Below are positions 1-20,000 of a stretch of 20,000 bases of DNA, one piece after another. Source of the DNA: an uncultured virus (IMG/VR IMGVR_UViG_3300026549_000072). Taxonomy: Duplodnaviria > Heunggongvirae > Uroviricota > Caudoviricetes. The notes below the pieces were generated by a model, which worked only from the letters and a program-made list of their open reading frames with translations, ran no database searches and was not told the DNA's origin. The position numbers and the translations under genes were made by a program. Every line of letters starts with the position of its first letter. Positions within the stretch are counted from its first letter, which is position 1. The stretch lies in IMG/VR virus record IMGVR_UViG_3300026549_000072; one strand, 5' to 3'.

Positions 1-828
1 GATAGAATTCCGATGTCTACATCTGGAACGATGTACAATGTACCACATACATCGAGCGGAAATACTGTAAGTGCCACACTCTCCTATCCTTTTTCTGGAT
101 TTAGTGATTCAAACGATTACTTAATTCGTGCCCAGGGTAAGACTCAGAACGGTATTAGTGTTGATACTGGTTATGTTGGTATCACTTCGAACTATTCAAC
201 GAAGTCAATCTTTGCCGTACTACAGGCGGATAATGTTCCGACTGAAGGTAAGATATATGTACATTCCAATATCGTTTCTTCGGTGTGTAAAGTTTATAAC
301 CCTGACGGTAAAGAAATACCTGAGTCACAACTTGGTTCGCATGGGCTTTTATATTTAAGCGATTACACAAACCCATCTGATAATACTAGAGTGAATGGTA
401 ATCACGCTCTTATTCTCCCAGAAGGTTATTATATGGAAATTGACGATGGTTTCTCGCTCGGCGGTGATTTCTCAATGTCATTGATTTTTATTAATCCAGA
501 GCCGAACAAACCATTAGTTACATTTGTGAACGTTAACAGCAATTATAATACCTATCTTTATTATCGTGTTGGGAAATTTAAGAGTGACTGGGCTGATAGT
601 CCGACTGGAGAGCAAGCCTGTTTTGAATTGATTGTTGACGGCAAGCTTAGAGATATATATGTAAGCGACGTATTTAATCGTGTTGGCGAAGATGAACGTG
701 TAGGTGTTGTAATCATCAGAGAGGACAATCGCTTCCATTTAGTTTCGAAGACTGGATTCAGGTTAACCAATGTGGCAGTCGATCCTGTTGAATCTTATGC
801 TACATCCGAAAAGGAGAACATTGGATAA
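1..828 (+). CDS. Phage tail/baseplate structural protein, 5'-truncated by the window edge
   Basis: Frame is open from base 1 (GAT AGA ATT CCG ATG...), so the true start is probably upstream. Ends TAA at 826-828, overlapping the next ATG (TAATG). Beta-rich, with a fibronectin-like stretch (DYLIRAQGKTQNGISVDTGY). No in-frame TAG. Function inferred from context. Confidence 0.7.
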   Translation, partial: DRIPMSTSGTMYNVPHTSSGNTVSATLSYPFSGFSDSNDYLIRAQGKTQNGISVDTGYVGITSNYSTKSIFAVLQADNVPTEGKIYVHSNIVSSVCKVYNPDGKEIPESQLGSHGLLYLSDYTNPSDNTRVNGNHALILPEGYYMEIDDGFSLGGDFSMSLIFINPEPNKPLVTFVNVNSNYNTYLYYRVGKFKSDWADSPTGEQACFELIVDGKLRDIYVSDVFNRVGEDERVGVVIIREDNRFHLVSKTGFRLTNVAVDPVESYATSEKENIG

Positions 829-1766
829 TGTTTTTAGGAACATTGCTGTGTAGTGGTGCTCCGAAGTACTAGATGTATAGCGGTTTAAATGAAACCGCAA
901 CATACGAAACGCTCAAGTATCAAAGCACAACAATAGATGACATCTACGCATCGGCACACATACTACACGATTTTGATTGGGTACTCCCGAATAACTGGGA
1001 TTACCATATTGTATTACATGCTATGTTCACCAACGGAGATATGAACGCAGGTAACGCCATATTCCGTGATGCAACAAAGATTATGTTAAAGAAACGTATT
1101 AAAGGAACTTTCGACTGGAAGACAATTTACATTCGTGACATTAGCACAGAGATACAGAACAGTCTTCAAGCGTTGAATATAGAGTACGATGATTATCTGG
1201 AACCAAATAAGAAAGATATTGAATACGCATATACTGCCATTATTGGCGGCAAAGAAACTGACCCAGTGCTCGCTGACACATCTTCATTCTTCTATTGCTA
1301 TTATCTTGTTGGACAGTATCAGGATGGTGGTGAACAGCCGCATTATCCTTGTATGTTTAATATATCTCATCAGTTATCTCTACATCGTCCGTCCGCCACT
1401 GTAATATCACCAGGTTCAAAGTACCCATATGTTGTTAATAATGGTTCAACAAAATATTATGGTGGAAACTTTAGTGTGACGTTTATGCCGCATGATGACG
1501 AGATGCTACCAATACCAGAGCACGGTGCTACTCTTCGGAACACGATTGATGAATTTTTAACAGATGGTTACCCGAAGATTCTCAAAACTTATGATGGCGA
1601 TATTTATATGGCTGCTATTACTGGTGATATCTCTAGAAATAATGGACAACACTATCAGAATATCGGTCAGTCATGGGAGTGGGTAGAGGTTGGCGATCCA
1701 AACGACTGTGGTGACTTATATGATTATGGGTTTATAAATACTGATATAGGTCGAAGCGGAGGTTAA
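828..1766 (+). CDS. Phage tail protein (possibly distal-tail/Dit-like), 312 aa with 1 TAG read as sense
   Basis: AAGGAG at 811-816; ATG 828 overlaps the upstream TAA. MFLGTLLCSGAPKY[TAG 870-872]MYSG... joins the 873..1766 ORF in frame. C-terminal motifs (KYPYVVNNG..Y.GG, FLTDG.PKILK.YDG, WEWVEVGD) resemble tail proteins of large Firmicutes phages. Ends TAA. Confidence 0.7.
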
Positions 1767-1768
1767 CC

Positions 1769-3430
1769 ATGCCGTACATTCCAAGTCAAGATGAAATAAG
1801 CGCAATCAAACAAAACGTAAAAGATGTCTATGTTAAGGTCGAGCTTCTGACTGAGAATATGACAATTATTGATTCTTTAACTGGTAATTTGGTAAGCGAT
1901 AGTTTTAGTTCTGATTCAAACTCTATTCAACGTAGAAACTATACATGCAATCTTGTTGTGAGTGACCATGCACGTAAGATTAATAAGAGTACGATCCTAT
2001 CCGAATATCTTGTTGGCAAAGATAACAAGATTTGGATTGATAAATATATTCGAGTCTATTACGGAATTTTTTCGTACCGAGCCAAAGAAATAATTTGGTG
2101 GAGAATTGGAACCTTCACATATGTTTCTGCGAATTATACTTTTGGTGCAACTGAATGTAATCTTTCGCTGACATGTGCTGATAAGATGTGTGACTATGAT
2201 GGTACAAAAAATGGATTGATTCATCAGACAAAGTACGATGATATTACAGGTGAAAGTGCCGCCGGGTTTAAAATCCCAGCGGTTGCTCAATACGAGACGG
2301 ATTCAAGTGGCAATGTGTTAAAAGACTCTAACGGTAATCGTATTGTTAAATCATATAACAAGATTCGTGACTCTGTAATTGCGCTACTAAATCTTGCAGG
2401 TATTACTGACTACGAGGTTGGATATTATCCTGCCGGAAGAGATATTGTGCCTTATGACTTGGAGTTTAGTGGCGAGGTTGTTTATACCACGGTATGGAAT
2501 GCGCTTAGAGATTTATACCCAAGCTGGGAATATTTCTTCGATGTTGATGGTCGTTTTATATGGCGTAAAATCCCAACGGGTAAAAACGAATCCGTTGCTA
2601 TTAATGATGAAATCATCGATGATATATATGTAACAGAAAGTACAAGTAGCAGTTTTGCAGGTATATATAATTGTACTGAAGTATGGGGAAAGACATTCAC
2701 CCTGACAAATGAAGACCGCTATGCAAATACTTCTACATATAATGCATCGTCAAATACATATACTATTACCATCCCGTTAATTAAGAAAAATGGTGTTACC
2801 ACAGGGAATACTTCTCCACTATCATATTTCTGTCAGGGCGACAAGATAGCTTTTAGGGTGTTTAACACGAATACCTCGGCCTCTCCAAAACTTATCATTA
2901 AAGGAACAGACGGCACAACTATAAGTGCTCTGCCAATTGTTGATAGTGCTGGTGATGCTTTGGGAGCTAGGGTTCTCCCGACATCTTCTACTGGTAAAAT
3001 TTGTGTCTTTACTTATCGTCAAAACATTAAAGCGAATTTGAATGTTCAAGGTGTGTATCTTAATGGGCAGACCCAAGCGTATGGATATTACGAAGAGACA
3101 AACCCTGATTGTCCATTCTCAACGGCTAATATAAAGAAGAATGTAAAACGAATCATCAAAGAGACATTGTTCTCAGATGACCTTTGTTATAATCAGGCTG
3201 AATATGAAACATATAAGACATGCGCTATGAAAGATACTATTACTCTTACTATGTTGATTGTCCCCTGGCTTGAGGTAAATCAAAAGGTGTCTTTCACATC
3301 AAAACTAACTGGCGTAACTGAGCAATATATGATTTCGAATATATCATGGTCAACACTTGATGGTACGATGACTATGAGTATGTATAAATTCCTCGAAGAC
3401 TTTGAGTATGTCAAGAATCAAGGGAGTTAA
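1769..3430 (+). CDS. Phage tail/baseplate hub-like protein (possibly DUF5048-like), 553 aa
   Basis: GGAGGT at 1758-1763; intact ORF ending TAA; no TAG. Motifs typical of hub/Tal-like proteins: LSLTCADKM, VPYDLEF, WEYFFDVDGRFIW, IVPWLEVNQKV, YMISNISW. Family assignment is from memory of motifs. Confidence 0.7.
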   Translation: MPYIPSQDEISAIKQNVKDVYVKVELLTENMTIIDSLTGNLVSDSFSSDSNSIQRRNYTCNLVVSDHARKINKSTILSEYLVGKDNKIWIDKYIRVYYGIFSYRAKEIIWWRIGTFTYVSANYTFGATECNLSLTCADKMCDYDGTKNGLIHQTKYDDITGESAAGFKIPAVAQYETDSSGNVLKDSNGNRIVKSYNKIRDSVIALLNLAGITDYEVGYYPAGRDIVPYDLEFSGEVVYTTVWNALRDLYPSWEYFFDVDGRFIWRKIPTGKNESVAINDEIIDDIYVTESTSSSFAGIYNCTEVWGKTFTLTNEDRYANTSTYNASSNTYTITIPLIKKNGVTTGNTSPLSYFCQGDKIAFRVFNTNTSASPKLIIKGTDGTTISALPIVDSAGDALGARVLPTSSTGKICVFTYRQNIKANLNVQGVYLNGQTQAYGYYEETNPDCPFSTANIKKNVKRIIKETLFSDDLCYNQAEYETYKTCAMKDTITLTMLIVPWLEVNQKVSFTSKLTGVTEQYMISNISWSTLDGTMTMSMYKFLEDFEYVKNQGS

Positions 3431-3437
3431 TTTATAA

Positions 3438-4091
3438 ATGGCAAAAATGTATGAAGACCTAGCTCACACCCTCTTCCCAGAGGCTACTGATGATGAAGCA
3501 GGTCATCCGTTAATGAATGACGTAACGTAGAGTCCGACGCTTCTTCAAGCAGCGAACCAATACAATACGGCAATCATGTCAAACAATAATGTGACAGCAA
3601 AATCAATTCTTGATAATAACGAGGAATTGGCGAACTGTCTATTCAACGCAGACAAATATAACTGGATGCGTGATGCGATTATTGCAATGGAGCGATATTA
3701 TATCAACGATGTCTAGACGATGATTGAGGATGTAGCAGCTCGTACTGTTGGATTTGACGATACAAATTCACAGGAAAGCCCTAATACTAATGGGTATTCT
3801 ATTACAAAGATTACTGCGATGGTGGATGGAACCTCAACCAATGTGACATTGCAACCAGGGACATGGCAAGGTGGTGCCGCTCCTTTTACATATGAAATTA
3901 GTAATGCAGATATCACAGCGACAAACAATGTAGATGTAAGTCTTGCCACGAGTGCGACTCTTGACCAAGCTAAAGTATGGGCTAAGGCTATGGTCATGAA
4001 TGCAACTCAGGCGGCTGGCAAGATTACGCTTAAAGCCTATGGTAAGAAGCCTGGGGCTAATATTCCGATTGTTGTTACGGTACATAAATAA
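3438..4091 (+). CDS. Phage structural/baseplate-associated protein, 217 aa with 2 TAGs read as sense
   Basis: ATG 3438 after AGGGAG (3421-3426). MAKMYEDLAHTLFPE...; TAG at 3528 and 3714 are in frame with ORF 3720..4091; ends TAA. C-terminal module (VTLQPGTW...ITLKAYGKKPGANIPIVV) is common in phage tail proteins. Confidence 0.8.
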
Positions 4092-4099
4092 GGAGGTGA
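4090..4099 (+). promoter_or_regulatory. Strong Shine-Dalgarno site AAGGAGGTGA for the giant tail gene
   Basis: Near-perfect complement of the 16S rRNA 3' end, just upstream of GTG 4103. Under the standard code it would serve only a 50-codon peptide. Confidence 0.85.
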
Positions 4100-4102
4100 A
4101 AA

Positions 4103-7100
4103 GTGCCTATTTCATTTGGTGCGGGTTCAGATAGTCAGAACACATCCAGTGGTTCTTTGACTGCTGATTCCAATGAGACCTATACCAGGCTCTCTCAATA
4201 TAATAGTACATGGTATCCTGAGTACACAGATGAAAACACTTTCACTGTTACTTAGACAAAGAATGTCATAACGTCTCAGGATCATCCGAACTTAAGTCAG
4301 GAAACAAACAGTCAGTATATACCATTCGTAATGCCAAGATTCTATGATGGTATTGACCTGACTAACATGACTATTCAAATTCATTTTGTCAATGCTAATA
4401 ATGATGATTTCATTGCAAACCCAGTTAATGTTGAGGCCAGTGAGAATCATATAAGATTTGGATGGCTCGTTGATGAGCGTGCAACTGTAGCGGCTGGTAA
4501 GCTTCAGTTCGAAATCAAAATCTTTGGTGTGACATAGAATGGTTTAACATATATTTGGAGAACACGTCCGAACTCCGCTCTTGTTGTTGAGAAGTCTTTA
4601 GAGGGCAATGGATTTATCCAACCTGAGAACTATACAGATTGGTATACCACGTTTGAGATTGCAATGAATACCAAGGTTGCAGATGCTCAGGCGGCGGCGA
4701 ATACTGCCCTTGAAGCAGCGGCGGCGGCTGAAGAGTGGGCATCCTCTGTGGATGTTTATAGTAAGAGCGACATTGATGAAATGTTCGCAGAAACGAAGAG
4801 CTTATCTAATCTTGGTGCAGAATTTACAGGTGGTGCGCTCGTTTTATATGATAAGAGCAAGCTTAGAAGTGACCCTGATTTTGTTATCGCTTCTGTAGAT
4901 AACATTGATACTCTGAATAAACTTAGAGTTGTTTTTAATCGAGATGATAATACTGGAGACTCATCATTATCGTTTTATGATGATGAAAATTTATTAAGTA
5001 CTGTTGTGCTTGATTTTACGCCTAATGTTGAGTGGCAAACAGAGTTTGCTTCGGCTGTTGGGACACAGACAGATTCTAAGATTTAGGCATATAATACCAA
5101 TACGGTTCAACCAGCTCTATCTGCTATTAATAGTGACCTCACATCAATTCATAATAACATTGATAGTCTTCCGCAGACGCTTCAAAGTGATTATTATACA
5201 AAGGCCACTGTTGATCAGAAGATTGCTGATGCTATGGAAGACGCTGTTGATGAAAGTGAAATCAATTCTTTAATTTCTACTAATCCTACTGTTACAGGAA
5301 TTCAGAGTAGCATTCGTAGCATCACTGAAGATGTAAGTAATGCAACGTCTCGTGTTGACGATCTTGATGACGCAGTTGAGAATCTTCGCAATAACATTAC
5401 ATCTCATAATGTGTATGATATTGCGTATAATGATAAAACAAATGAGCTTTCATTATATGAGAATGCAGATCCGACTGATGAGTCTGCTATTCCAAAAACG
5501 AAAGTAATCATTAAAGGTGGTTCTGGCGGATAGTCTTCTGGTTCTACCCTTACCATTACAAGAATCACTCCTGATACTGTTATGGCTAAGAGTGATGTTG
5601 AATCTATTTTGATTCAGTATAATTTCACATCTGTAATGGCGGATGGTGATACCAACTCTATTACTGGTACTGCGGTATGGAAAGTTGGAAGCACAACTGT
5701 GGCGACGGAGACAAATCTTTCCCAGGGCGATAAGAGCTTTAATATAAGACCGTACCTTACTGTTGGAACAAACCTTGTCACTCTCTCATTTACAGATAGT
5801 GAAGGAAGCATCTCAACTAGAAGATGGACTGTTACACTGATTAATTTTAACATCACAAGTTCATTCAATGATGCGACCACATATGATACTGATATAGCGT
5901 TCAGATATACTCCGAATGGTAATATCTCAAAAGTCGTTCATTTTGTGCTTGATGGTGAAGAGATAGATACCGTAACAACAAACACGACTGCAAAACAGCT
6001 TACATATACGATTGCAAAACAATCTCATGGTGCTCATCTTCTTGATGTGTATATGACTGCTACGATTAATGATGTTCCTGTTGAAAGTAATCACATATAT
6101 AAGGATATCATTTTCGTAGATGAGGCCAATACCACCCCGATTGTTGCAACCGCCGTTAGAAGTATTAGCGCAAAGCAGTATGACACCACAGCGATTTAGT
6201 ATATTGTTTATGATCCGCTTCATAACCCAGCGACAGTAGAACTAATTGTTGACGATGATGTTATTTCTACGCTTTAGGTTGATAGGACATCTCAGCTTTG
6301 GAGTTATAAGACGGGTTCTGTCGGAGAGCATACGTTAAAGATTCGTTGCGGTGAAACGTTCGTTAGTATTAGTGCGACCATCGAAGATATTGGTATTGAT
6401 GTTGTACCGATTACCGACAATCTCATGTTTGACTTTAATCCATCTGGTATGTCAAATGCAAATACTAATCGTATTTGGACAGACGGAACATATCATATGA
6501 CAGTCAGTGAGAATTTTGACTGGGCTAATGGTGGATACCAGGTTGACTCAGATGGCGATACATATTTCTGCGTCAAAGCAGGAACGACTGCAAGTTTTGA
6601 TGTTCCTCTGTTTGGCGATGAGGCTAAGACATCTGGTAAAAACTTTAAGTTTGTTTATCGCACAAACAATGTCAGAGACTATGATGCTCATGTATTGAGA
6701 TGTATGTCTGGTGGTATTGGTCTTGAGATGAATGCACAGAATGCAATCCTTCATTCTCAACAGAACTCTATCGAGGCTCCATATTGTGAAGACAATTTCA
6801 TGGAGTTTGAATTCAATATTTTGCCATCAACTCATTATAGAGAGATGGTTCTTTGGATTGATGCAATTCCGACAAGAGTTAAACTCTATGAAACAACTGA
6901 TAGCTTCACACAGATTCCTACTGTCCCGATTACAATTGGTTCTGATGATTGTGATGTCTGGGTTTATAGGATGAAGTCTTACTCTGTGTATCTTGAGGAA
7001 GATGAGATTCTTACGAACTTCATTGCTGATGCTAAGAATGCAGAAGAAATGATAAACCGCTACAACAGGAATAATATCCTGAACGATGCCGGTGAGCTTG

Positions 7101-10100
7101 ATCCAGACCTACTTGCAGAGAGATGCCCAGACCTTAGAATTATTAAACTCTCCGCTCCGTATTTTACAAACGACAAGTATAACAAGGTGTCTAACACTAC
7201 CGTCCAACATATCTACAAGAATGGTCGTGCTGTTGAGGATAACTGGACTGCAACTGGTGGTGTTCATAAAGGACAAGGTACGTCATCTAACTATTACGGC
7301 GATTCTGCTCGTAATATTGATATAGATTTCCGCAAAGCATTTAATGAAGAAGCTGGTACTGGATTTAGATATGGAGACAACACACTTCATGCTAAGTATG
7401 CTATGACGCCAAATTCCGTCGAGGAAGCATACTTTAATATAAAGCTAAATGTTGCATCTTCTGAAAACGCAAACAATGCTGTCATTGCCGATGACTATAA
7501 TACATTCAATCCGTATGTCAGACCAGCTCGTGCTGAGAATCCAAAAGTAAGAGATACAATGGAGTTCCATCCATGCGTAGTCTTTATTCAGGAAAGTGAC
7601 CCAGACCTTTCTACTCACAGAGAGTTCCAGGACAACAACTGGCACTTCTATGGTTGCGGTGACTTTGGTAACTCCAAGAAGAATAATGGCGCTATGGGTA
7701 TGACTGATGATCCGAATGAGTTCATCATGGAAATCAGCAATAATATCAATGCTCAGTGCAGGTGGTTATCTGATGACCTATCCACAGAAACATGGGGATT
7801 AAACGACCAAAAGGCTGTATCGTTTGAGTTTAGATATATCAAAGACGAAGATGATTCAGAGATGATTGCAAACGCTCAGGCTGTGTGGCAAGCAAATCTC
7901 ACATGGGTTGTCAATCAATACAAAGCTGATGTTATTGGACAGCTTGCGACTCTTGATGCGGCAATTGAATAGGCAGAAACTCCAGAAGCTATTACTGCCG
8001 CTACTGAAGCAAGAGATAGTTATATATCTAACTTCAAGTCCGAGTTTGAACAGCGCTTCCAAGCAAATAACCTTTGCTATACATATTTGTTTACTGAGCG
8101 CCACATGATGATTGATAACCGTGCCAAGAATACATTCTGGCATTATGACCCGACAACTGAGCTTCTTAGCTGTACGTTTGACTATGACAATGACACAGCT
8201 GAAGGTAACGATAATGAGGGTGGTTTGACTCTTCGTTATGGCCTTGAAGATACTGATACTATTGGTCAGAAGGATGTTTATAATGCGGCTGATTCTTATA
8301 TCTGGAAGCTTGTAAAGAACTTCTACCGTGTCGATCTTGCAACGATGTACCGCACTCTCGAAAACAATGGTGCATGGTCTGCCACAAGATTCCTTAATAA
8401 GATTGAGAGCTATCAGAACGTTAAGCCTGAGAGACTTTGGATTTATGATATGCAGAGAAAGTACTTCCGTCCTTACGAGGAAGGTGGCATAACTGAGGAA
8501 ACTGACAGCAAGCCGAGTACAACCGCATATCTTGAGATGATGCATGGTTCAAAGAAACATCAGCGCAGACAGTTTGAGAAATACCAAGAGAAGTATATTG
8601 CTTCTAAGTATATTGGCGTTGCTGTAACTTCAGATGTGCTAACGCTTAGAACATATACGCCTGAAGTATGGTCTGGTGTTGCGCCGTCAACCACATTCCA
8701 TATTACTCCATATGCTGATACATATATTGTCGTAAGCTATGGTGGAACTCAGGTTCAAAAGCGTGCTGTACGTGGACAGGAATATACTATTAGTGCACCT
8801 CCTGGAACGAGAGTTAACGATACTGAAACATATTGCTATAACGCTTCTATGCTTTAGAGCCTTGGTGACCTTTCAGCTTTCTATCCAGGCTATGTTAACC
8901 TTGCTGGTGGTGTCAAACTTAGAGACCTTTTGATTGGTTCTGATGAGACTGGGTATTCCAATACAAACTTTACCGCTGTATCTGTTTCAACAAATCCATT
9001 GCTTGAAAAGCTGAATCTACAGAATCTTCCGAACCTTGCGATGTCTGTTAACGTTGAAACATGTGTCAACATGACGGAGCTTCTTGCTGATGGTTCTGCT
9101 ATTACTGGTATCGTTCTTCCGACTGGTGGTAAGATTAACACCGTTCACCTTCCTGCAACGATTACTTCATTTACAGCTAAGGGATTGAACTACCTTACTA
9201 GCCTAACGATTGATGGTTATAGTAACATTGCAACCATCTCAATCGACAACTCTCCTTCTATTGATTCGTATGCTATGTTTATGGCATGTAATAATCTGAG
9301 GGTTGCAAGATTGATTGGTATTGATTGGAACATCACAGACGATACCGAACTTGAGCGGTTATATAACTTAAGTGGTCTTGATGAGAATCACAATAGTACA
9401 TCTAGAGCTGTAGTCTCTGGTACTGTTCACATTACCACGACTCGTGAGCGTAACCTTGCGAAATACACTGAGGCATGGCCGAACCTTACAATCACTTATG
9501 ATAATATGATTCGTCAGTTTTCTGTCGCATTTTATAATGCTGAGGATGCAAGTGGTACAAGTGCTCTACTTGATATTCAGTATGTCGATGTGAATAATTA
9601 CCCAGAAGACCCAGTTACTCGTGATGTTAATCCAGTGACTCCTACGCTCGACCCTACTATCAGTACTGTTTACACTTATGAGGGTTGGGATCGTGAAATC
9701 TCCGCTGTTACTGGTAACCAGATTTACACCGCAGTTTACTCTGAATCTCCGAGAACTTATACTGTGACTTATACAAATGGTCATGGTACTGTTCTTCAGA
9801 GAACGACTAACTGTCCGTTCGGTGCTTATGTACCTTATATAGGAATAAGCGGTACATACTCTGAGAACATGTCTGTTCCTACAACTGGAACTGGTTATAC
9901 TGCGCTTGCTGAGTCAAAGCAAGCTATTATACCGACATACACCACTGGCGAAGCGGCGAACAGTTATTATCTGTTTACTGGTTGGGATCAGTCTGGATAT
10001 GTCAGCGGATATACGAATGCTGAGCAAACAACGATTGGCGACAAGACTATTAACGCTTTGTATGATACATTTGCATACACTTCAAGCGGTAGTACTAATT

Positions 10101-11437
10101 CATTTACAGATGAAACAGGTAAGTATAAGTCACTGAGCACTCTTACTCCTGTCGAAATTTATGCAATGAAGAAGCTTGAGGCTAAGTATGCTGTAAATGT
10201 AAATGACGGCGATGACGATGATAGTGATGACTTTATTGCTATCGGAGACGAAATTGCAATAACTCTTGGTAACGATATTAACTTCTCTGATGTTGAAAGC
10301 CATGAGTTTGTTACACTTTCTCAGCCGTTTACTATGAATGGTAGAAACACAAAGATTGATACTGCATCTATCGGTAGTCATTTACCATACGCAAAACTTC
10401 TTGCGGAAGACAGAGATTTTGTATTCGCATTTGAATACTATCTGAACTCTTCGAGTAATTCTGGATCTGTTTTGATGCAGTGCTTCGATGACTTTACCAA
10501 AACCGGATTGCAGATTAGTACTACTGGAATTAACTGGTTTGGCACATCTGTCAACGCTGTGAATGTTAACACTAGAGATATTATTGTCTTACGTCACAGA
10601 AAGGGCGATAAGAAGCTTTATGTGTATAGCGGAAATTTAAGCGGTTCTTCTGTGGCTTATACTGAGATTACGAATAGTACAACTGCTACGACCGTAGATA
10701 CAGACGTTGTATTTGGCTGTGCGAAATATGTTTCTTCTACGTCTACAACATATGATAGCTATGCTAATGGAACCATATATTGGGCAAAACTTTGGAATGC
10801 AGACCTTGGCGACGCTGTGTGTAGAGACCTTGCGGCTTGGACTCATGAGACGATGAATTTCAAAGTCGCAAAATATAAAGACTACTACACACCAGAAAGA
10901 AGTAAAGCCTTATTCACCTTCATCGCTGTAGAGCTTCTTCCATATAAGAAGGTGCTTGGTGCATATAATTGGCCTTCCGCATCTCTCAATGAGTATTTAC
11001 AAAAGAGATTGTATTTTGCTATGCCGATTGAATGGCAAGCGATTATGGCAGAAGTATTGCTTCCGTCCTGGGATGGTTATGTGACTACTACAAACCCAAG
11101 AGGCCAGACTGTTGTTTCAAAGTCTGAAACCATTACAAACTCAAACGCTTATATATTTATTCCATGTGCGGCAGAGGTTGATAGCACTGCTGGTAATGAT
11201 TTACTACTTTCAAGAGAGTGCAATAATGGTATGATTAAATTCATGTCGACTGCATCAAATCTTGTTGGTAGGTATGCAGATGGATATGGCGATAATTATT
11301 GGACGAGGTCTTGTAGCGCAAGCTATGCTGACTTCATAGGTACTGTAACTTATAACGACGATTCTGATACTGCATCTGTAAGCTATTGGGAAGGTTATTC
11401 CAACTCAAATGCTGTCAGAATTATGTTCTCGATTTAA
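4103..11437 (+). CDS. Giant multidomain tail/baseplate protein, 2444 aa with 8 TAGs read as sense (BppU-like N-terminus, Ig-like, LamG-like, CotH-kinase-like, LRR, InlB-B-like repeats, lectin-like, DUF6273-like C-terminus)
   Basis: GTG 4103 after the SD. ORFs 4331, 4664, 5234, 5582, 6425, 8087 and 8930 share one frame. The only stops between them are TAG at 4253, 4535, 5084, 5531, 6197, 6275, 7970 and 8855; I translated the gaps and found no TAA or TGA. Ends TAA 11435-11437, directly before a terminator. Confidence 0.88.
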
Positions 11438-11442
11438 TGTTT

Positions 11443-11467
11443 GGGGCGGCTTCGGTCGCCCCTTTTT
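11443..11467 (+). terminator. Rho-independent terminator
   Basis: GGGGCGGC-TTCG-GTCGCCCC-TTTTT: 8-bp stem with one G-U pair, cUUCGg tetraloop and a 5-T tail, beginning 5 nt after the TAA of the giant gene. Confidence 0.85.
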
Positions 11468-11477
11468 AGGAGTTTGA

Positions 11478-11789
11478 ATGTTTTATAAGATAACGAAAGA
11501 CGGACGTGTTATAGATGTCATCGATTAGATTGTGTATGTAAGATATGACAAACGGCACGATGACATACATATCTGCGAGCCAGAAAACGCAAATGCATTT
11601 CTCTCCTCTGATCGAAGAAGTTGTTGGAGGGTACGGTAGATGAAGCTCAGCGATAAGGTCTTTGACACTGTTGAGCTTAGCGAAATTACCGAACAGGAAT
11701 ATCTCCAACTTCGTGCGCTTAATATGAAAACGCCAGAGGAAATCATAGACGCATATACTCTCGCTCTTATTTCTGGAGGTGTAATATGA
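11478..11789 (+). CDS. Small tail-fibre-associated protein (XkdW-like position; possible fibre chaperone), 103 aa with 2 TAGs read as sense
   Basis: AGGAG 11468-11472, ATG 11478. MFYKITKDGRVIDVID[TAG 11526]IVYVRY...RVR[TAG 11637]MKLS...EITEQEYLQLRAL..KTPEEIIDAYTLALISGGVI, ending TGA. Missing from the standard-code ORF track. Lies upstream of an XkdX-like gene. Confidence 0.75.
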
Positions 11790-11926
11790 GTCAGTTTGTT
11801 GAGAGCTTAGCTCGGCTTTACAGCCAAAAACAAATTACACAAGAAATGGTGAGGACACTTTTTACAAAAGGAAAAATCACGAGTTCCGAATTTGTCTATA
11901 TCACCTCTTCTAAGGAGAAGTCATAA
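11786..11926 (+). CDS. XkdX-like small phage protein, 46 aa
   Basis: GGAGGT 11775-11780; ATGA overlap with the upstream stop. MSQFVESLARLYSQKQITQEMVRTLFTKGKITSSEFVYITSSKEKS fits the XkdX-type pattern (LY....I....V......GKIT..E...IT). Ends TAA. Confidence 0.7.
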   Translation: MSQFVESLARLYSQKQITQEMVRTLFTKGKITSSEFVYITSSKEKS

Positions 11927-12561
11927 TGTATACGATTATTGTTAATAATGATAATGTGCTGGACAAAACTAATGTCGAGCGTGTTATGTGCAAAAGTAAA
12001 CTCGTGAATAATATGCATTTTCTTGTGCCACTTATGTACGATTAGATTAGTATGGATGGATTTACTGCCGTACTTGAATATCGTCTTCCTGTGAGCAAGG
12101 CGTATCATACCGAGATTCTTGTTGTACAACCAGAGATTTACAAGGATGATTATCTAGAATATCGTTTACCGTTTGATACAAATTTAACGGCAGAAGCTGG
12201 TGAGATTGAATTACAGCTCACGTTTACTAAAGCCATTCTTAATGATGATGGCACAACAACTCAGTATGTTAGGAAGACTCTTCCAACCTAGATTGTAATT
12301 ACGCCGATTGCATCCTGGGCTGATATGATTCCTGATGCCGCACTTACCGCCCTCGACCAGAGGATTATTGCACTTGACCTTGCTCAAGAACAGCTCGCTC
12401 AGCTTGCTCAGCTTCTTAACACAGGTAAAGCTGATAATGTTGTTATCGAGGGTGACCAGCTACAGCTTACTTCTAATGGCGTTAAGATTGGCGATGCTGT
12501 TACTGTTAATCAGATTTACAATATTAACACGACTGGCGAACTGAAGGTGGTGGAGATTTAA
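11926..12561 (+). CDS. BppU-like baseplate/fibre attachment protein, 211 aa with 2 TAGs read as sense
   Basis: AAGGAG 11912-11917; TAATG overlap. TAG at 12043 and 12289 join the N-terminus with ORFs 12052 and 12325. The motif LPFDTNLTAEAGEIELQLTF resembles BppU N-terminal domains and the WLVDERATVAAGKLQFEI motif of the giant protein. Confidence 0.8.
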
Positions 12562-12929
12562 TGCCAAACGAAGAATCTGCCAAGCTAGGGTACGGTAAAT
12601 ATGACCGAGTTAACAAGGCGGTGGATTCTGGAACATTAGATGCTAGAGATTTGGTCATCACGAGAGATACATCAGAGTTTATCTATATTCGTGATGACCT
12701 GTCTCAGCAGGTAATCCGCCCACGCCTCAGATGCTTCGATGATGTGTTTACCGCATTGAACGAATTAAATAATTCTGCTGATACATATGCTGGCCAGTTT
12801 GTTTGTATTAAGAATGAGTCAGGTGAATATGAACCATATGTCGTTCAGCAAGGAACATCTATCTTCGAGGTACAACCAATAGTACAAGCATAGGCTCCCA
12901 CTGCTAATATTCAGTGGGTGCGTTTTTGA
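12561..12929 (+). CDS. Phage fibre-associated protein, 122 aa with 1 TAG read as sense; paralog of the N-terminus of 14473..15372
   Basis: TAATG overlap. Reading through TAG 12891 extends the frame to TGA 12927-12929, which overlaps the next SD (GAGGT) and closes the intergenic gap. Confidence 0.75.
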
Positions 12930-12937
12930 GGTAATAA

Positions 12938-14032
12938 ATGGCGAATGTAAGTTTTTACTATGGCACAAAAGCGAACTATAATTCGCTCCAAACAAAGAGT
13001 GCCGATACTTTATATTTTATTACCGATACGCTGCAATTGTATAAAGGCGAAGACGAATATACCAAATCAATGTAGTTCGTCTCTTAGCTCCCGGCTAATG
13101 GTGAAGCTCGGCAAGGTATTCTTTATATTCTATAGAGCGACTTTTCAGCATATCGGTTCACTGGGTAGGCATATCAGAAACTATTTCTTGGATACGCAAC
13201 TGCTATTCCAAATGTATCGCCTACCGATGACAATGTTCCTACAACAAAAGCTGTTGCAGACTATGTAAATGCAAAGATAGCGGCTATTACTGGAAGTGCA
13301 GACGGATGGGTGTCTGATGTTACATATAACAACGGCACTTTAACTGTTGTCAAAAGTTCTGGCGGAATTGAGACTACTCTTTCTCATGTTGCTCATGATG
13401 TTTCGTATGATGTTGCAACTCAGACGCTAACTGTCCCTATGTTTGGCGATGAGTCATTGTCAATTAATTTCGCACAGATATCTTCTGTCTCAGGTGGATA
13501 GTATAATTCCGAGACTGGTAATATTGAGCTTGTGCTTGGCAATGGTAATATAGTTGAAATTCCAATTGGTTCTTTGATTGATGTATATACTGGGATCGCA
13601 ACGCAAACCACAGAGACATCTGTAAGCAACGATAATAAAATCTCTGTGCGTGTCAAGCTTTCCGCTTCTGCAAATAATGCATTAACGCTTGAGCAGGACG
13701 GATTATATGTGCCTCTCCCAGATGCATATACAAAAGCTCAAATTGATGGTTTGTTTCAGACAGTCAATGCTGTAATTAACGACCACGTAAATAATTCAAC
13801 TGCACATGTTACAGATGTTGAACGTGCCACATGGAATGCTAAAATATCAAGTGACCAGTTGATTGCGGCTAAGAGTGAAGCAATCGCTACTGCCGCTGCT
13901 GATGCTACTGAGAAAGCAGACCAGGCTCTTATTGATGCAAAAACATATGCTGATGGTCTTAATAGTAATATGATTAACAGAATGACCGTTGTTGAAAGGT
14001 CTATTATCTGGAATACTATACCGTCAGATTAA
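12938..14032 (+). CDS. Phage tail fibre/structural protein, 364 aa with 5 TAGs read as sense
   Basis: GAGGT 12928-12932, ATG 12938. MANVSFYYGTKANYNSLQTKSADTLYFITDT...; TAG at 13073, 13085, 13133, 13166 and 13499; joins ORFs 13310 and 13532; ends TAA. Fibre-type motifs VPTTKAVADYV, NNALTLEQDGLYV and HVTDVERATWN. Confidence 0.82.
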
Positions 14033-14041
14033 GGGGGTTTA

Positions 14042-14473
14042 ATGGCAAACCTCTCATTATTTGAGGTAACTCAATCACAGCTTTCATAGGTGGCAGTTAA
14101 AGATGGTCAGCTGATTGTATGTACTGACACTGGGAACTTCTATAGAGATTTAAGTGATAGACGAATTATTCTTGGGTCTAGTATTGAAAAAGTCAATACT
14201 CTTCCACTTGCACCGCTTAGCAATAAAGTATACTTACTGCTGTCGGATCAATCACTCTGGTACTATGAAAATGATTGGATACAGCTAAGTAATAGCCGTA
14301 TTGTAGTGACGGCGTCAACTTATGCATCACTTCCATCTGTTGGATAGGAAGCGTGTGTATATATAGTTAAAAACCAAAATAAAACATATCGATGGGATGA
14401 TACTGATACTCGCTATTATTGTATTGGTAGTGATTACAACGATATTACTATTATAGATGGAGGAACTCCGTAA
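14042..14473 (+). CDS. Small fibre-associated protein, 143 aa with 2 TAGs read as sense
   Basis: AAGGGGG 14031-14037, ATG 14042. TAG at 14087 and 14345. Ends ...YRWDDTDTRYYCIGSDYNDITIIDGGTP then TAA, overlapping the next ATG. Confidence 0.8.
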
Positions 14474-15372
14474 TGGCTGATAAAAGCGCTAAGCTTGCAT
14501 ATGGCTCATATGCGTAGATTAACGACAAGATTCGTGATGGTGCAATTGACGAGCATGATATCGTTTTTACATCTGACACATCCGAGATTGTCTATATAAA
14601 AAGCGACCTCTCTCCGCAGGTTATGAAGTCAAGAATTGAACTGTTTGATAATATTGATTCCGCTGTGAATACACTCAATCACAGGTAGTCTTCTTATCCT
14701 GGGCAACCTGTTGGAATTAGAGGTACAGATGGTAATTACGACCTTTATACAACATTTCTTCATGGTAATACATTAAGTGTAAAACGTGTTTTTTATGCTC
14801 CAGAAATAGAGTCTCTTACTTAGGAAGTATCAGAGCATATTAATGATAGCACGGCGCACATTACCGATGGCGAGAGAACGCTTTGGAACAATAAGTTAGA
14901 ATCTTCTGCTCTTGACCCATTTAATGAGCATATTGATGATTCATATATCCATATTACTCATGGAGAGCATGAGAATTATAATGCACATATAATCAATGAT
15001 GAAATTCATACCACTCAAAACGAGCGTGAAACATATAATTAGCATATTGAGAATCAAAACATTCATGTAACTGCAAGTGATAAAGAACGTTGGAACTCTC
15101 AGGGAATTACTTTTAACAGTAAAGCTGACTTTATCGCTGAAATGCAACGTCATGATGTTGGTTCTGCCACGCATGTATTCTTCCCAGCGAATGTCATTAA
15201 TGATGTGACTGGCGGAAAGATTACATCTGCTGTTTATGGTTTGATGTGTCATACAGCGGCTTCGAGATATGATATGAATTTGTATGCAGATGGTTATATG
15301 ATGTATTTGGTGAGGCTTGATGAGAATGGAACTGTGTCAAGAGTATCAAGAGCTACTCTTGCAACTGTGTGA
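14473..15372 (+). CDS. His-repeat phage fibre-like protein, 299 aa with 4 TAGs read as sense
   Basis: GGAGGA 14459-14464; TAATG overlap. TAG at 14515, 14686, 14821 and 15040; in frame with ORF 15142..15372; ends TGA. N-terminus aligns with 12561..12929. Confidence 0.82.
14836..15096 (+). repeat. Four degenerate protein-level repeats H-x6-H-(I/T/V)-T-x2-(E/D)-x3-(W/Y)-N
   Basis: HINDSTAHITDGERTLWN, HIDDSYIHITHGEHENYN, HIINDEIHTTQNERETYN, HIENQNIHVTASDKERWN. Confidence 0.85.
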
Positions 15373-15380
15373 GGTAAATA

Positions 15381-16601
15381 ATGCCTAACACAACACTTAA
15401 TACCATATTAATTTTAAGAAATGGCACAGCATCAGAATGGGCATCGACATCCAGAATTCTCATGAAAGGTGAGATGGCGGTTGAGTTCCAAACTGATTCT
15501 GGTGGAAACATTTCAGGATAGCCAAAGCTAAAAATTGGTGATGGCGAAAGTGCATATACTGCTCTGCCATACGTTGGGTTGACAGCAAGTGAAATAGACA
15601 CAATCATTTCTGATCAGATTGGTGATTTAAAGAATTTTAAAACCATTAAAGTTGGAAACACAAATATTGTCGCAGCTTAGATGGAAGATACAATAACATT
15701 AACTGCTGGAAGTAATGTCACTCTTACACCAAACACAACCAATAAAAGTGTAACAATATAGGCCACCGACACAACATATGACCCAGCAACACAAAGCGCC
15801 GATGGTTTAATGTCTTCTACAGACAAACAAAATCTCGACAATGCGGTTTAGAAGTTAAGCGGAATTGATGCTGGTGCAGATGTTAATGTTATTGAGGCTA
15901 TTAAAGTAAATGATAGTGCGCTAACACCAGATTCAAATAAAGCTGTTAACATTACTGTCCCGACTAAAGTTGGAGATCTTACAAACGACAGCGGTTTTAT
16001 CACAAAGGCTGTAAACGATTTAACTAATTACTACAAGAAATCTGAAACATATACAAAAACTGAGGTCGATAATCTTGTAGATGTAATTCCAAAATTTTCA
16101 ATCGCTGTAGTGAATGCACTTCCGACAGAAAGCATATAGAACACAACGATTTACTTAGTGTAGAGTGGTAACAATACAAGTAATCTATACACTGAGTATA
16201 TTTATGTAAATAGTGCTTGGGAGATACTCGGCGCTCAAGAAGTTGATTTATCTGGGTATGTAAGGAAGTCTGATATTGTAACTCAAAGTGCCGACGGTCT
16301 AATGTCAAAAGAGGACAAACAAGCATTAGATACTATTGCAGATGACTATGTTAAATCAATCACTGTGAATGGTAGAGTTATCACTATCACATATGGTGAT
16401 GATGGAACAGATACAATCACAACTCAGGATACTACTTATGATATTGCAACTGCAAACGTCGCTGGTCTTGTAAAGTCATAGACCGGCACTAATCAAATTG
16501 CTGTTGATTCAACTGGAATAATGTCATTTAGCGCCTGTTAGACAGATACATTTGTCCAGGGTACAAACACTTTAATCTTAAATGGCGGAGGGGCTTCGTA
16601 A
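15381..16601 (+). CDS. Tail fibre protein with Mtd_N/hyaluronidase-type N-terminal domain, 406 aa with 8 TAGs read as sense
   Basis: GAGGT 15371-15375, ATG 15381. LRNGTASEW...ILMKGEMAVE...KLKIGDGESAYTALPY is the Mtd_N-type motif. TAG at 15519, 15678, 15759, 15849, 16137, 16161, 16479 and 16539; ends TAA. Entirely absent from the standard-code ORF track. Confidence 0.85.
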
Positions 16602-16629
16602 TGGGGCCTCTCCCATAGGAGTCTCTTAA

Positions 16630-19599
16630 ATGGCAGATAAAACTATTAATGTGAAAATTCGAGAAGCTTATGATACAGAGTAGAACTGGAGGTAGAATGA
16701 CCCAGTTTTATACTCTGGTCAATTAGCTATCTCATCTGATAGACATGGGATGTATAAGGTCGGCAATGGCACAGCAACATGGAGCGAGCTTGATTATGCA
16801 TCTCATCCAGCTTAGGATGTATCATCCTGGGCAAAAGAATCTACTAAGCCGACATACACGATTAGTGAGATTTCTGACGCTGGCACCTTAATCACAAATA
16901 TGACTAGAACCAATATCACAGATGCTCTTGGGTATACACCTATTGGCGAAGGCAATTATGTGATTTAGGTGGATCATGGTGGAACTGGTAAAACGACTGC
17001 AAATGAAGCGGCAAATGTTTTTATTAATGCACTCACGGATGATTAGACAAAACCTGTCGATAGTGACTATTTTATTTCACAGTATGTAAATGGTCATACA
17101 ACAACCACAACTTATCATCGAAGACCGCTCTCCGCCTTATGGGATTATATCAAAGATAAATCAGATGCGGCTTATTTAGCGATAAACGGAACCGCAGCCA
17201 AGGCCACAATTCTTGAGTAGAATCGTACAATTGATGGTATTGCTTTTAATGGCTCGGCAAATGTAACGCATTATGGAGTGTGTAATACTGAGGCCGAAAC
17301 AGCAGAAAAAGCTGTGGCGTGTAATAATTTCTCTCTCGATACAGGATCTGTAATCACGGTAAAGTTTACCATTACAAATACGGCATAGTCCGATGTCACA
17401 TTAAATGTTAATTCTACTGGAGCTAAATCAATCAAGTATCGAAATAGCGTGGTTCCTAGTAGTAGCCTATTTGTTGCTGGGCGTACATATCAATTTGTGT
17501 ATGACGGAGAATCGTATCAACTTGTTGGTGATATCGACACAAACATTGATACAAAGGTAATGCAGTCTTTATCTACTGAAGATATGGATTATCCTGTTCT
17601 ATTTTCATATGCAAATAAGAACGATACCACCGCTGATATTAATAATGGTTCATATAGAAATAATAGTATATATGTAAATCCGTAGACAGGTGCGCTGACA
17701 GCCACAACGCTTAAAGGATATCTTGATGGAAATGCAAAAAGCGCAACTGTTTCGAGTTTCTTAAATCCGACTGATAGCAATACAACTTATGGCTCATCCA
17801 CTGAGAGAGGCACAATAACAGATGGTGTTGTTGTGTTTGGCGAATCATTTAGGAACACTGTCGACTTTGTAAATGAAGACGAGAGTATGATTAGTGATAG
17901 TGGCGATATCACCATGTGGATGAAGCAAGAGGCAGACGATGATGTTCGCCTTAACATGAGTATAGATGGTGATTATTATGCACATAAGGATCAACCAATT
18001 GCAAAGTTAAGCGAGGTTGTTACGCTTAATGGTGATCAGACAATCACTGGGTATAAGACATTTCCTGGCGCGACTTTTACCAATGATACTCGTTGGGAAA
18101 AAGGTGACTATGGTTTCATGATAAGGAATGACGGTGAAAGCACATGGTTCTTATTGACTGCCGAAGGTGATCCGACTGGTTCATAGGAAACGCCTCATCC
18201 GATTCGTATTAAACATGATAATCACGAAGTCTATTTTGGCAGTCCTGTAACCGCACATCAGGGAATAACTGGTAACTTAAACGGCAATGCAACAAGTTCA
18301 ACACAAACAACGCATATAATTGAGCCACATCATCTCAATACAAATTACCAAACATGGGCATCTACATCATAGAATATTCATACAACTGGGCAATATAATG
18401 AATTGAATATAGGTCGATTCTTTATAACAGATGGTACAACTCCTGCAAATTATGGGCTTCCAGTCGTAGATAATCATGTCATGACATATAGCATTGATAA
18501 TACTTCTACTGCATATATGAGATAGCTAGCATTCGATATTAGGTCAAATGCTGTTTATGCTGGTGGACGTGTCAATAATGCCTGGTAGTCATGGGATAAG
18601 CTTGTCTCTAAAGGCAATATCGTTTATGGGCGTGGCAATTTAAATTCAAACGGAACGTTTGACGCAAATGGCAATGTGACGCTTGAAGACTATGGATACG
18701 GCTCTAATATAAGCGTTGGATAGGTTGCTACAAAACCATTTTTAAGATTTGCGTATATGAATGCTGGAAGCGCATCATGGTATGATTGCAGCATAATATG
18801 TTTGATAGACCGTGGTTATAACGGTGGTGAATGGGGAATATTTAAAGCTTGTATAAGAACAAATGATAACTCTAATTCGGCAAGTTTCTCTGCGTCGGGT
18901 GCTATTGTGCAGTGGTTGGTTAGAGTAGGAATTCCAACTGATGCAATACAGATTGGTCTTCACAGTCAATTCCAAAATAACTATGCTAGTTTGTTTTATA
19001 AAATAACTGGTAGTTATCAGGGCGCAAGAATCACAGTATTATCTCAAAACCATAGAGGTAGCCTTGGAAGGCGATGGACATTCCTGAACTGTAGCGAAGA
19101 TAATAATGGCAACGGAACTGAATGCTATGCAAGTATTGCCGCTTACAGTTCAGCTTTGTCTACTATCGTGGCTGGTTCAGACGTTGGTTATACTAATAAT
19201 GCAAGATACGGAGAATATGTATATGTGTCTAATAGAAGGGGATCTGGTGCTTCTGGAAGGATACCATTAATTGTTGATGGTGGCATAAGTGGAACAGATA
19301 ATGCATATAGAAGGCCATATACGATTCAAGATGATATTGGATTTCATTATCGCCCTGGTACATAGTCAAGCAGGACTGGGTATGCATATCTGCAACTTGG
19401 AAACAATATAGCATATACAGGTGGCAATGGAACACGAGGTTTGATAAGACTCTATGGAAACAACTCTTATTTTACCGATATATTAGCGCCTGATTCAAAT
19501 GCGAATAGAACTATTTATCTCCCAAATAGAGGTGGACGAATATTCACCACAGATATGTTTTCTCTCAGCGGAACCACTCTAACTATCTCTACATCATAA
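16630..19599 (+). CDS. Long mosaic tail fibre / receptor-binding protein (Mtd_N-like N-terminus, gp37-like and pyocin-knob-like segments), 989 aa with 14 TAGs read as sense
   Basis: AGGAG 16617-16621, ATG 16630. TAG at 16681, 16693, 16813, 16966, 17044, 17218, 17386, 17683, 18184, 18370, 18523, 18586, 18721 and 19363; joins ORFs 17449, 17833 and 18757; ends TAA 19597-19599. Fibre motifs: ALGYTP, HGGTG.TTA, RTIDGIAFNGSANV, TLNVNSTGAK.I, GDQTITGYKTF, GNLNGNA. Confidence 0.87.
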
Positions 19600-19608
19600 A
19601 GGAGTAAA

Positions 19609-20000
19609 ATGGTAAATATATATGGTTCAGGTGGCGGTGGTATCACATCTGATGATGTCACTGCTTCTCGTGCTGATGTCCTCAATACAGTAGCTACAAT
19701 CACTTCTGATTCAAATGATGAAGTTGTGGTTGGAACTCTTGCTAATATTGGAGCGACAGAGGCACACAAAAGTATTCGCACAGATTCTTCCAACTTGTAT
19801 CTTGGTATGACTGTTGGAGCGCATGTAACAAATGCTTCTTCTGGATATCCTGAAGTTTATGTACCGCTTTCAACACTCCGTTCTAAGATCGGATATACTG
19901 ATGCAGCAAAAGTGTTGGCTGGTACTACAATTGCAGGTCTTGCAGGAACGATGCCGAATAGAGGTGCTGTGAATGCTACGCTTGCAATAAATGCAACTTA
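19609..20000 (+). CDS. Tail fibre-like protein, 3'-truncated by the window edge
   Basis: AAGGAG 19599-19604, ATG 19609, open to the window end with no TAG so far. MVNIYGSGGGGITSDDVTASRADVL...DSNDEVVVGTL...AAKVLAGTTIAGLAGTMPNRGAVNATL resembles fibre motifs of Clostridia-type phages. Confidence 0.75.
   Translation, partial: MVNIYGSGGGGITSDDVTASRADVLNTVATITSDSNDEVVVGTLANIGATEAHKSIRTDSSNLYLGMTVGAHVTNASSGYPEVYVPLSTLRSKIGYTDAAKVLAGTTIAGLAGTMPNRGAVNATLAINAT

Follow-up and report, generated by a model that had tools for sequence, protein, structure and literature searches.

TAG as a sense codon, probably read as serine, in the tail module of an uncultured caudovirus

The DNA analysed here is a stretch of 20,000 nucleotides from the uncultured caudovirus IMGVR_UViG_3300026549_000072 (hereafter the window, meaning the stretch at its full length). 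It carries 15 genes of a phage tail module, all on the + strand and all late (virion) genes, in which the amber codon TAG is a sense codon. But which amino acid does TAG encode? The original prediction had proposed recoding, probably to glutamine under translation table 15. The sense codon stands; the glutamine is not supported, as homolog columns, exchange between strains and a tRNA of the sister genome IMGVR_UViG_3300021431_000082 (hereafter G001) favour serine. We put the probability that TAG is read as serine, alone or dominantly, at about 0.76, on the strength of sequence comparison.

Genes of the window

In-frame TAGs are present in 11 of the 15 genes (1, 2, 8, 2, 2, 1, 5, 2, 4, 8 and 14 per gene, in the order given here). 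The first two encode a 312-amino-acid protein matching phrog_27355 (828..1766, TAG at 870) and a 217-amino-acid protein (3438..4091, TAG at 3528 and 3714). The third encodes a 2444-amino-acid tail-associated protein (4103..11437) with matches to phrog_14959, phrog_24896 and, weakly, DUF6273, and has eight TAGs at 4253, 4535, 5084, 5531, 6197, 6275, 7970 and 8855; its ortholog in G001 also has 2444 amino acids and zero TAG. A strong terminator-like hairpin (11443..11462, + strand; consensus match only) separates it from a run of shorter genes: a 103-amino-acid protein (11478..11789, TAG at 11526 and 11637, ending in TGA), a 211-amino-acid protein (11926..12561, TAG at 12043 and 12289), a 122-amino-acid protein (12561..12929, TAG at 12891, ending in TGA), a 364-amino-acid protein with a weak Phage_tail_C match (12938..14032, TAG at 13073, 13085, 13133, 13166 and 13499), a 143-amino-acid protein (14042..14473, TAG at 14087 and 14345) and a 299-amino-acid protein with tail and minor-tail PHROG matches (14473..15372, TAG at 14515, 14686, 14821 and 15040, ending in TGA). 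The last two are a 406-amino-acid tail-fibre-like protein (15381..16601; phrog_6049 and a weak Mtd_N match), with TAGs at 15519, 15678, 15759, 15849, 16137, 16161, 16479 and 16539, and a 989-amino-acid tail fibre protein (16630..19599; Gp34_trimer and tail-fibre PHROGs), whose 14 TAGs run from 16681 to 19363.

The TAG-free genes are the 3' part of a tail-module gene (1..828, 5' open, ending in TAA; its G001 ortholog has 483 amino acids), a 553-amino-acid, baseplate-hub-like DUF5048 protein (1769..3430, 25% identical to the 'baseplate hub protein' of phage PMBT24), a 46-amino-acid XkdX-like protein (11786..11926; weak match, below cut-off) and the 5' part of another tail-module gene (19609..20000; phrog_35834), with zero TAG in its visible part. 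The DUF5048 gene does have TAG in strains and relatives, at Ser positions, although the window copy has none. A promoter scan of the window gave 74 matches against 71 ± 10 expected by chance, and its repeats are chance-like only.

TAG is not a stop in the tail module

Recounting agrees with the original prediction on 49 in-frame TAGs without any internal TAA or TGA or any frameshift. All 14 gene ends are TAA (11) or TGA (3) and none is TAG, and the TAATG overlaps at 826, 11924, 12559 and 14471 and the ATGA overlap at 11786 lie where they had been described. Reading through TAG raises + strand cover by open reading frames of at least 100 amino acids from 0.606 (table 11) to 0.987, in line with the near-full coding that had been claimed; with TGA as sense the cover is 0.634 and with TAA as sense 0.723, so the gain is TAG-specific. 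Domains split by TAG are restored, as had also been proposed: the Pfam Gp34_trimer match (431-525 of the 989-residue protein, above cut-off) spans TAG residue 519, the Mtd_N match (11-56 of the 406-residue protein, below cut-off) spans TAG residue 47, and the phrog_14959 match (462-1202 of the 2444-residue protein) spans TAG residues 477, 699 and 725. The expected fragmentation of structural genes by standard annotation is visible in the databases, where table-11 proteins stop at window TAGs: 11 of these positions are the exact ends of 21 non-identical proteins from other assemblies.

Could the TAGs still be real stops, in a decayed prophage or through sequencing or damage errors? Prophages can decay, and many relatives are indeed chromosomal loci of bacteria. 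Against this stand the 49 TAGs with no TAA, TGA or frameshift beside them and no gene ending in TAG, and also the suppressor tRNA of G001. Five TAGs (870, 11637, 14515, 16137 and 16693) are common to the window and G001 at the DNA level, and strain contigs from four sequencing runs cover 11400-16700, one run in a single piece. Because the same positions recur in other assemblies and in G001, which is about 70% identical in nucleotides, the TAGs are not an assembly or damage artefact, and we regard real stops as extremely improbable. TAG is a sense codon here and the recoding is real.

Residues in homologs at TAG columns

Glutamine as the only residue (code 15) is doubtful because it predicts TAG columns indistinguishable from those of CAA and CAG, and the TAG columns differ. 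Opposite the 30 window TAGs aligned with G001 are seven Ser, six Ala, six Gln, three TAG, two Glu, two Thr and one each of Asp, Pro, Lys and Arg. Under code 15 a change from CAG to TAG would be a synonymous transition; yet Gln is opposite window TAG at 6 of 27 non-TAG positions and opposite glutamine codons at 89 of 140 (52 of 83 for CAG, 37 of 57 for CAA; p=9e-5).

Homologs supply aligned residues for 48 of the 49 TAG columns. We examined these with a Codetta-like column test on homologs below 85% identity, closer ones being excluded as possibly translated with code 15; as a control, all 61 sense codons were assigned their table-11 residue. Serine came out top for TAG with a score of 22.7, glutamine scored -3.8, and none of Tyr, Trp, Leu, Lys, Glu or pyrrolysine (Pyl), all rejected as readings, scored near serine. 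Individually, 32 columns favour Ser, 14 favour Gln and two tie, with Ser first in 1960 of 2000 bootstraps. The summed Ser-minus-Gln score is +26.4 at TAG columns and -104 ± 12 at resampled CAA/CAG columns (highest -69.5), a second difference that code 15 does not predict. The same test run on G001 and on the relatives L045, L046 and L048 puts Ser first in each. TAG columns sit mostly at Ser/Thr/Ala-type positions. At position 870, poorly covered in the column test, a MAFFT alignment of 31 standard-code homologs has 17 Ser, eight Thr, five Ala and one Asp, and TAG is found there in G001 and L045 as well. Pfam and PHROG bit scores obtained with TAG as Ser or as Gln do not discriminate between the two.

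A codon without TAG in the window is also of interest. Positions 12127-12129 (residue 68 of the gene at 11926-12561) are CAA, the same codon is TAG in G001 and L045, and standard-code homologs have Ser, Ser, Ala, Ala, Asn and Thr. This is possibly a Ser-to-Gln change by way of TAG.

Exchange between close strains

Full-length close homologs in the databases show glutamine at window TAGs, and this might be taken as support for code 15. However, the database protein P0225 is the 989-residue fibre protein of the window with Gln at all 14 TAGs, a code-15 translation. Since such gene calls already assume code 15, their Gln is circular, and we dropped it as an annotation artefact; it does mark the TAG sites of strains. 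Among strains of at least 90% amino acid identity, window Ser faces this 'Gln' (that is, TAG) at 13 of 458 sites, against 5 of 2197 sites with Thr, Ala, Asn, Gly or Asp (p=4e-7). All 13 of these Ser codons are TCN and none is AGY (p=0.003). In the other direction, real Ser in strains is found opposite window TAG at 4 of 39 columns and opposite window CAA/CAG at 2 of 151 (p=0.017). Outgroups mostly have Ser at the strain 'Gln' sites (two examples: 88 of 89 and 13 of 13 standard-code homologs); in the relatives L045/L046/L048 two of the sites are TAG.

Because conserved Ser columns have acquired TAG in close strains, the serine reading would be current in the species. The same gains argue against glutamine only, also in the version in which a Ser-reading ancestor switched completely and the Ser-like columns are relics. 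Among 40 of the 556 strain DNA differences in 11400-16700 (contigs from four of 24 runs), none touches or creates a TAG codon, a sample uninformative as to the residue. One TAG, at 18184-18186 inside the Gp34_trimer match, is TGG (Trp) in five of five close strain proteins, a recent Trp-to-TAG change.

A serine-type CUA tRNA in the sister genome

A long variable arm and a discriminator base G73 are identity marks of serine tRNAs. G001 has, at 51797-51883, a tRNA of 87 nucleotides with anticodon CUA, a long variable arm and G73 (given as a serine identity mark in the accessible text of PMC5389517), and its D-arm resembles that of the tRNA-Ser(UGA) of the same genome. By these features the CUA suppressor of G001 is assigned a serine-type body. 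The G001 record, which is 83% complete, yielded 11-12 tRNAs, of which no other has a CUA anticodon; a short-arm, Gln-type CUA tRNA was not found in it. The 'Pyl' label given to it by ARAGORN reflects the anticodon only and was rejected. A scan of the window found no tRNA. No release factor domain (PF00472) was found in the 83% complete G001 (the control was positive in 10 of 14 genomes), nor any class IIb-core or Glu/Gln synthetase domain (controls positive).

Other tRNA genes came to light in the same searches. G001 has three odd tRNA-like genes of low score or irregular anticodon loop (L005:10160-10230, 10690-10779 and 12363-12435), adjoining an RNA ligase and a polynucleotide-kinase-like AAA_33 gene. 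Long-armed CUA tRNAs occur in 13 viral loci (L011-L023), which include G001 and the IMG/VR records G003-G007. TAG read-through raises open-reading-frame cover in sampled stretches of G003, G005, G006 and G007 (e.g. 0.44 to 0.81, 0.80 to 0.99, 0.66 to 0.86 and 0.43 to 0.82), and these four are probably further, separate Ser-type amber phages; the G001 TerL matched 0 of 5 other phages with long-armed CUA tRNAs, in a search run without a positive control. An identical short, Gln-like CUA tRNA is found in L130, L131, L132 and L150 (near 2200-2800), whose DnaE is 53-58% identical to that of G001. The wider group may thus hold both Gln- and Ser-type amber lineages. Searches with G001 DnaE and TerL for members of the clade bearing a tRNA cluster returned, apart from distant phages, nothing but G001 and a near-copy fragment (L155).

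Serine, glutamine or both?

A number of results weigh against serine, or against serine alone. The summed Ser-minus-Gln score of +26.4 falls short of all resamples drawn from true TCN columns (+80 ± 9, lowest 44.9), and a mixture fit makes 75-80% of the TAG columns Ser-like and 20-25% Gln-like; counted singly, 8 of 48 (17%) are Gln-like. Column 8855 belongs to the 17 near-invariant Gln columns, with Gln in all of 21 homologs, although over all residues the window breaks near-invariant columns in only 16 of 638 cases. Strain fragments called with table 11, where a Gln is real, have Gln at five window TAG columns; single other columns show Trp, Gly, Thr, Lys or Ala. When the first 35 columns are compared with recoded relatives only, Gln fits better than Ser (-71.4 vs -77.0). 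CAA or CAG is opposite window TAG in 26% of pairings and opposite the TAG of relatives in 6.5%. PHROG scores in 20 shared rows are higher with Q in 12 and with S in seven, with one tie. The sites counted are not independent evolutionary events, and the serine-type CUA tRNA is that of the sister genome, G001.

Do these points favour glutamine only? The Gln-like subset with 8855 and the 35-column fit would be at home under it, Gln is the proteomically validated phage reading as far as the accessible text of PMC9523058 goes, and the short Gln-like CUA tRNAs occur in phages related to G001 at the DnaE level. Set against the G001 pairings, the column scores and the strain gains described above, code 15 appears improbable.

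A mixed reading deserves more weight, although we still consider it unlikely. CUA tRNAs can be mischarged with Gln, and TAG could mean Ser and Gln within one species, through two competing CUA tRNAs or a partly mischarged serine-type tRNA. The phage would then be, in this unlikely case, a living ambiguous intermediate on the way from a serine code to code 15 or back, TAG forming a mutational link by which the same sites pass between Ser and Gln. TAG was gained both at near-invariant Ser columns (in strains) and at the near-invariant Gln column 8855 (in the window), two of the five TAG columns with real strain Gln (5084 and 6275) are Ser-like in relatives, and the 20-25% Gln-like component of the fit is in keeping with it. 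Competing tRNAs give ambiguous Ser/Leu reading in yeasts, according to the accessible part of PMC8629427. One phage can carry both tRNA shapes, since phage phAss-1 has three Sup-CTA tRNAs, one of 88 nucleotides with a long variable arm and G73 (L159:12445-12532, equal to OQ749652 62445-62532) and two short ones; it may hold suppressors of two types. On the other side, the Gln-like share in the window (8 of 48 columns) does not significantly exceed the 9 of 114 in relatives (p=0.16), among them G001 (2 of 28), in which the serine-type CUA tRNA was the only one found. No table-11 strain fragment ends at a window CAA or CAG and several end at Ser positions, though the cases are few. Between strains, transitions exceed C>A changes about 7-10 fold (C>T about sevenfold or more in three of the four runs), and this alone feeds TAG from CAG.

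This mutational bias bears on the serine reading too. CAG is about three times as frequent as TCG in the window (96 vs 31), and together with the C>T excess this leads us to expect many TAGs from CAG even under a serine code, which would explain the Gln-like minority as CAG-to-TAG transitions, of the most frequent mutation type, fixed as Gln-to-Ser changes at tolerant sites.

Relatives and host

A megablast of the window against 50,697 GenBank phage records gave no match. With the 553-residue protein as query we collected 106 homologous loci (37-49% identity). Six are clearly TAG-recoded (L002, which is G001, and L044-L048) and a short one (L049) probably so; the remaining 99 are readable with table 11, with 0-1 TAG where they align. 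A quick tree, built from the window plus 36 of the 106 (hand-chosen, near-copies excluded), puts the five recoded rows, the window and four relatives, on one branch with a Shimodaira-Hasegawa-like approximate likelihood ratio test (SH-aLRT) value of 100, the window being sister to G001. On this tree, amber capture is placed as a single event inside a standard-code clade.

The relatives are siphovirus-like phages of 130-200 kilobases (kb) and prophage-like loci of Lachnospiraceae/Clostridium. A Lachnospiraceae/Clostridia-type host is indicated by the titles of the 29 chromosomal loci, most of which name Lachnospiraceae, Lacrimispora, Hungatella or Clostridium, and one of the four close-strain runs is recorded as bovine gut. 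G001 is 151.9 kb long (83% complete by CheckV), and syntenic with the window; among the 42 of its proteins that were scanned are DnaE, NrdD, two members of the integrase family and a tape measure protein. The window phage itself is probably a siphovirus-like gut phage of about 140-150 kb infecting Lachnospiraceae/Clostridia. Two observations may be added. A G001 gene at L007:18477-20000 has a weak Pfam RdRP match (E 1e-4, below cut-off) and is possibly a phage-encoded RNA polymerase subunit; and the 2444-residue protein has distant homologs in records of Bacteroides phage p00-like (24-25%) and Bacillus phage G (gp353), i.e. across host phyla.

Proposed mechanism and consequences

How would such a phage read its own genes? 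We propose that the window phage carries a tRNA-Ser(CUA) like that of G001, which would be charged by the host seryl-tRNA synthetase and would outcompete host release factor 1 late in infection. Virion proteins would then reach full length only after the phage has made its tRNA, and early genes would avoid TAG. The replication strand of G001 is almost free of internal TAG (2 in 7,744 codons), in contrast to its virion strand (74 in 19,084).

In phage surveys, coding density is what reveals amber recoding, and TAG is then given as Gln by default. If TAG is serine here, the public code-15 proteins of the window phage are wrong at every TAG site, and proteomic searches built on them would miss the peptides that span TAG. 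Amber capture in gut phages would have more than one outcome, and recoding would need only a changed anticodon in a tRNA-Ser chargeable by the host synthetase. Public gut metagenomes contain many close strains, so that the code is accessible at both DNA and peptide level.

Comparison with known systems

The closest parallels in behaviour are the code-15 gut phages (crAss-like, Lak, Garnet, Sapphire, Agate and Topaz), which in the accessible text of Borges et al. (10.1101/2021.08.26.457843) share with the window clade standard-code close relatives and hosts, temperate members and, as seen in G001, the restriction of TAG to structural and late genes, TAG-free replication genes and a CUA suppressor tRNA. 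They differ in the residue, which in the window clade is apparently Ser, and in the tRNA, which in G001 has a class II serine body. Agate and Sapphire, by description of similar size and from cattle gut, may include the window clade. A Lak- or crAss-like identity was rejected: no Lak or crAss record was among the tblastn matches of the 2444-residue protein, the 553-residue protein and the G001 TerL, and G001 has DnaE, integrases and a tape measure protein.

Phage phAss-1 of the proposed Phassvirus (OQ749652), described by Babkin et al. (PMC10607447), is in the accessible part of that description also a siphovirus-like gut phage, of about 136 kb, with DnaE, TAG in virion genes, CUA tRNAs and no synthetase of its own, and its TAG was assigned to Gln. 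It was rejected as a member of the same lineage, as it has no match to window proteins and its portal protein and DnaE are only 23-25% identical to those of G001. The standard-code relatives have a homologous tail module; these are the Enterocloster phage isolates PMBT24, CB457P and CB473P, 25% identical, and the Lachnospiraceae/Clostridium loci, which differ in being readable with table 11.

Serine is another matter in the literature. The word 'serine' is absent from the searchable portions of Borges et al., Peters et al. (PMC9523058), Mgcod, Cook et al. (PMC11210395) and PMC13037316, and our literature search, over openly readable text, did not turn up a phage lineage described as reading serine, nor a named clade or evidence at strain level for such phages. 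The review PMC4695839, citing Ivanova 2014 (Science 344:909), does state in its accessible text that UAG is reassigned to Ser and to Gln in phages, which encode a Ser-tRNA(CUA), and mentions a phage release factor 2. The window clade differs from these amber-to-Ser phages in that no such release factor was found in the 83% complete G001, and resembles them in that UAG would be read as Ser through a phage Ser-tRNA(CUA), here that of G001. By its sequences, the clade, for which we found no description, probably represents this rare, once-predicted serine version of amber recoding.

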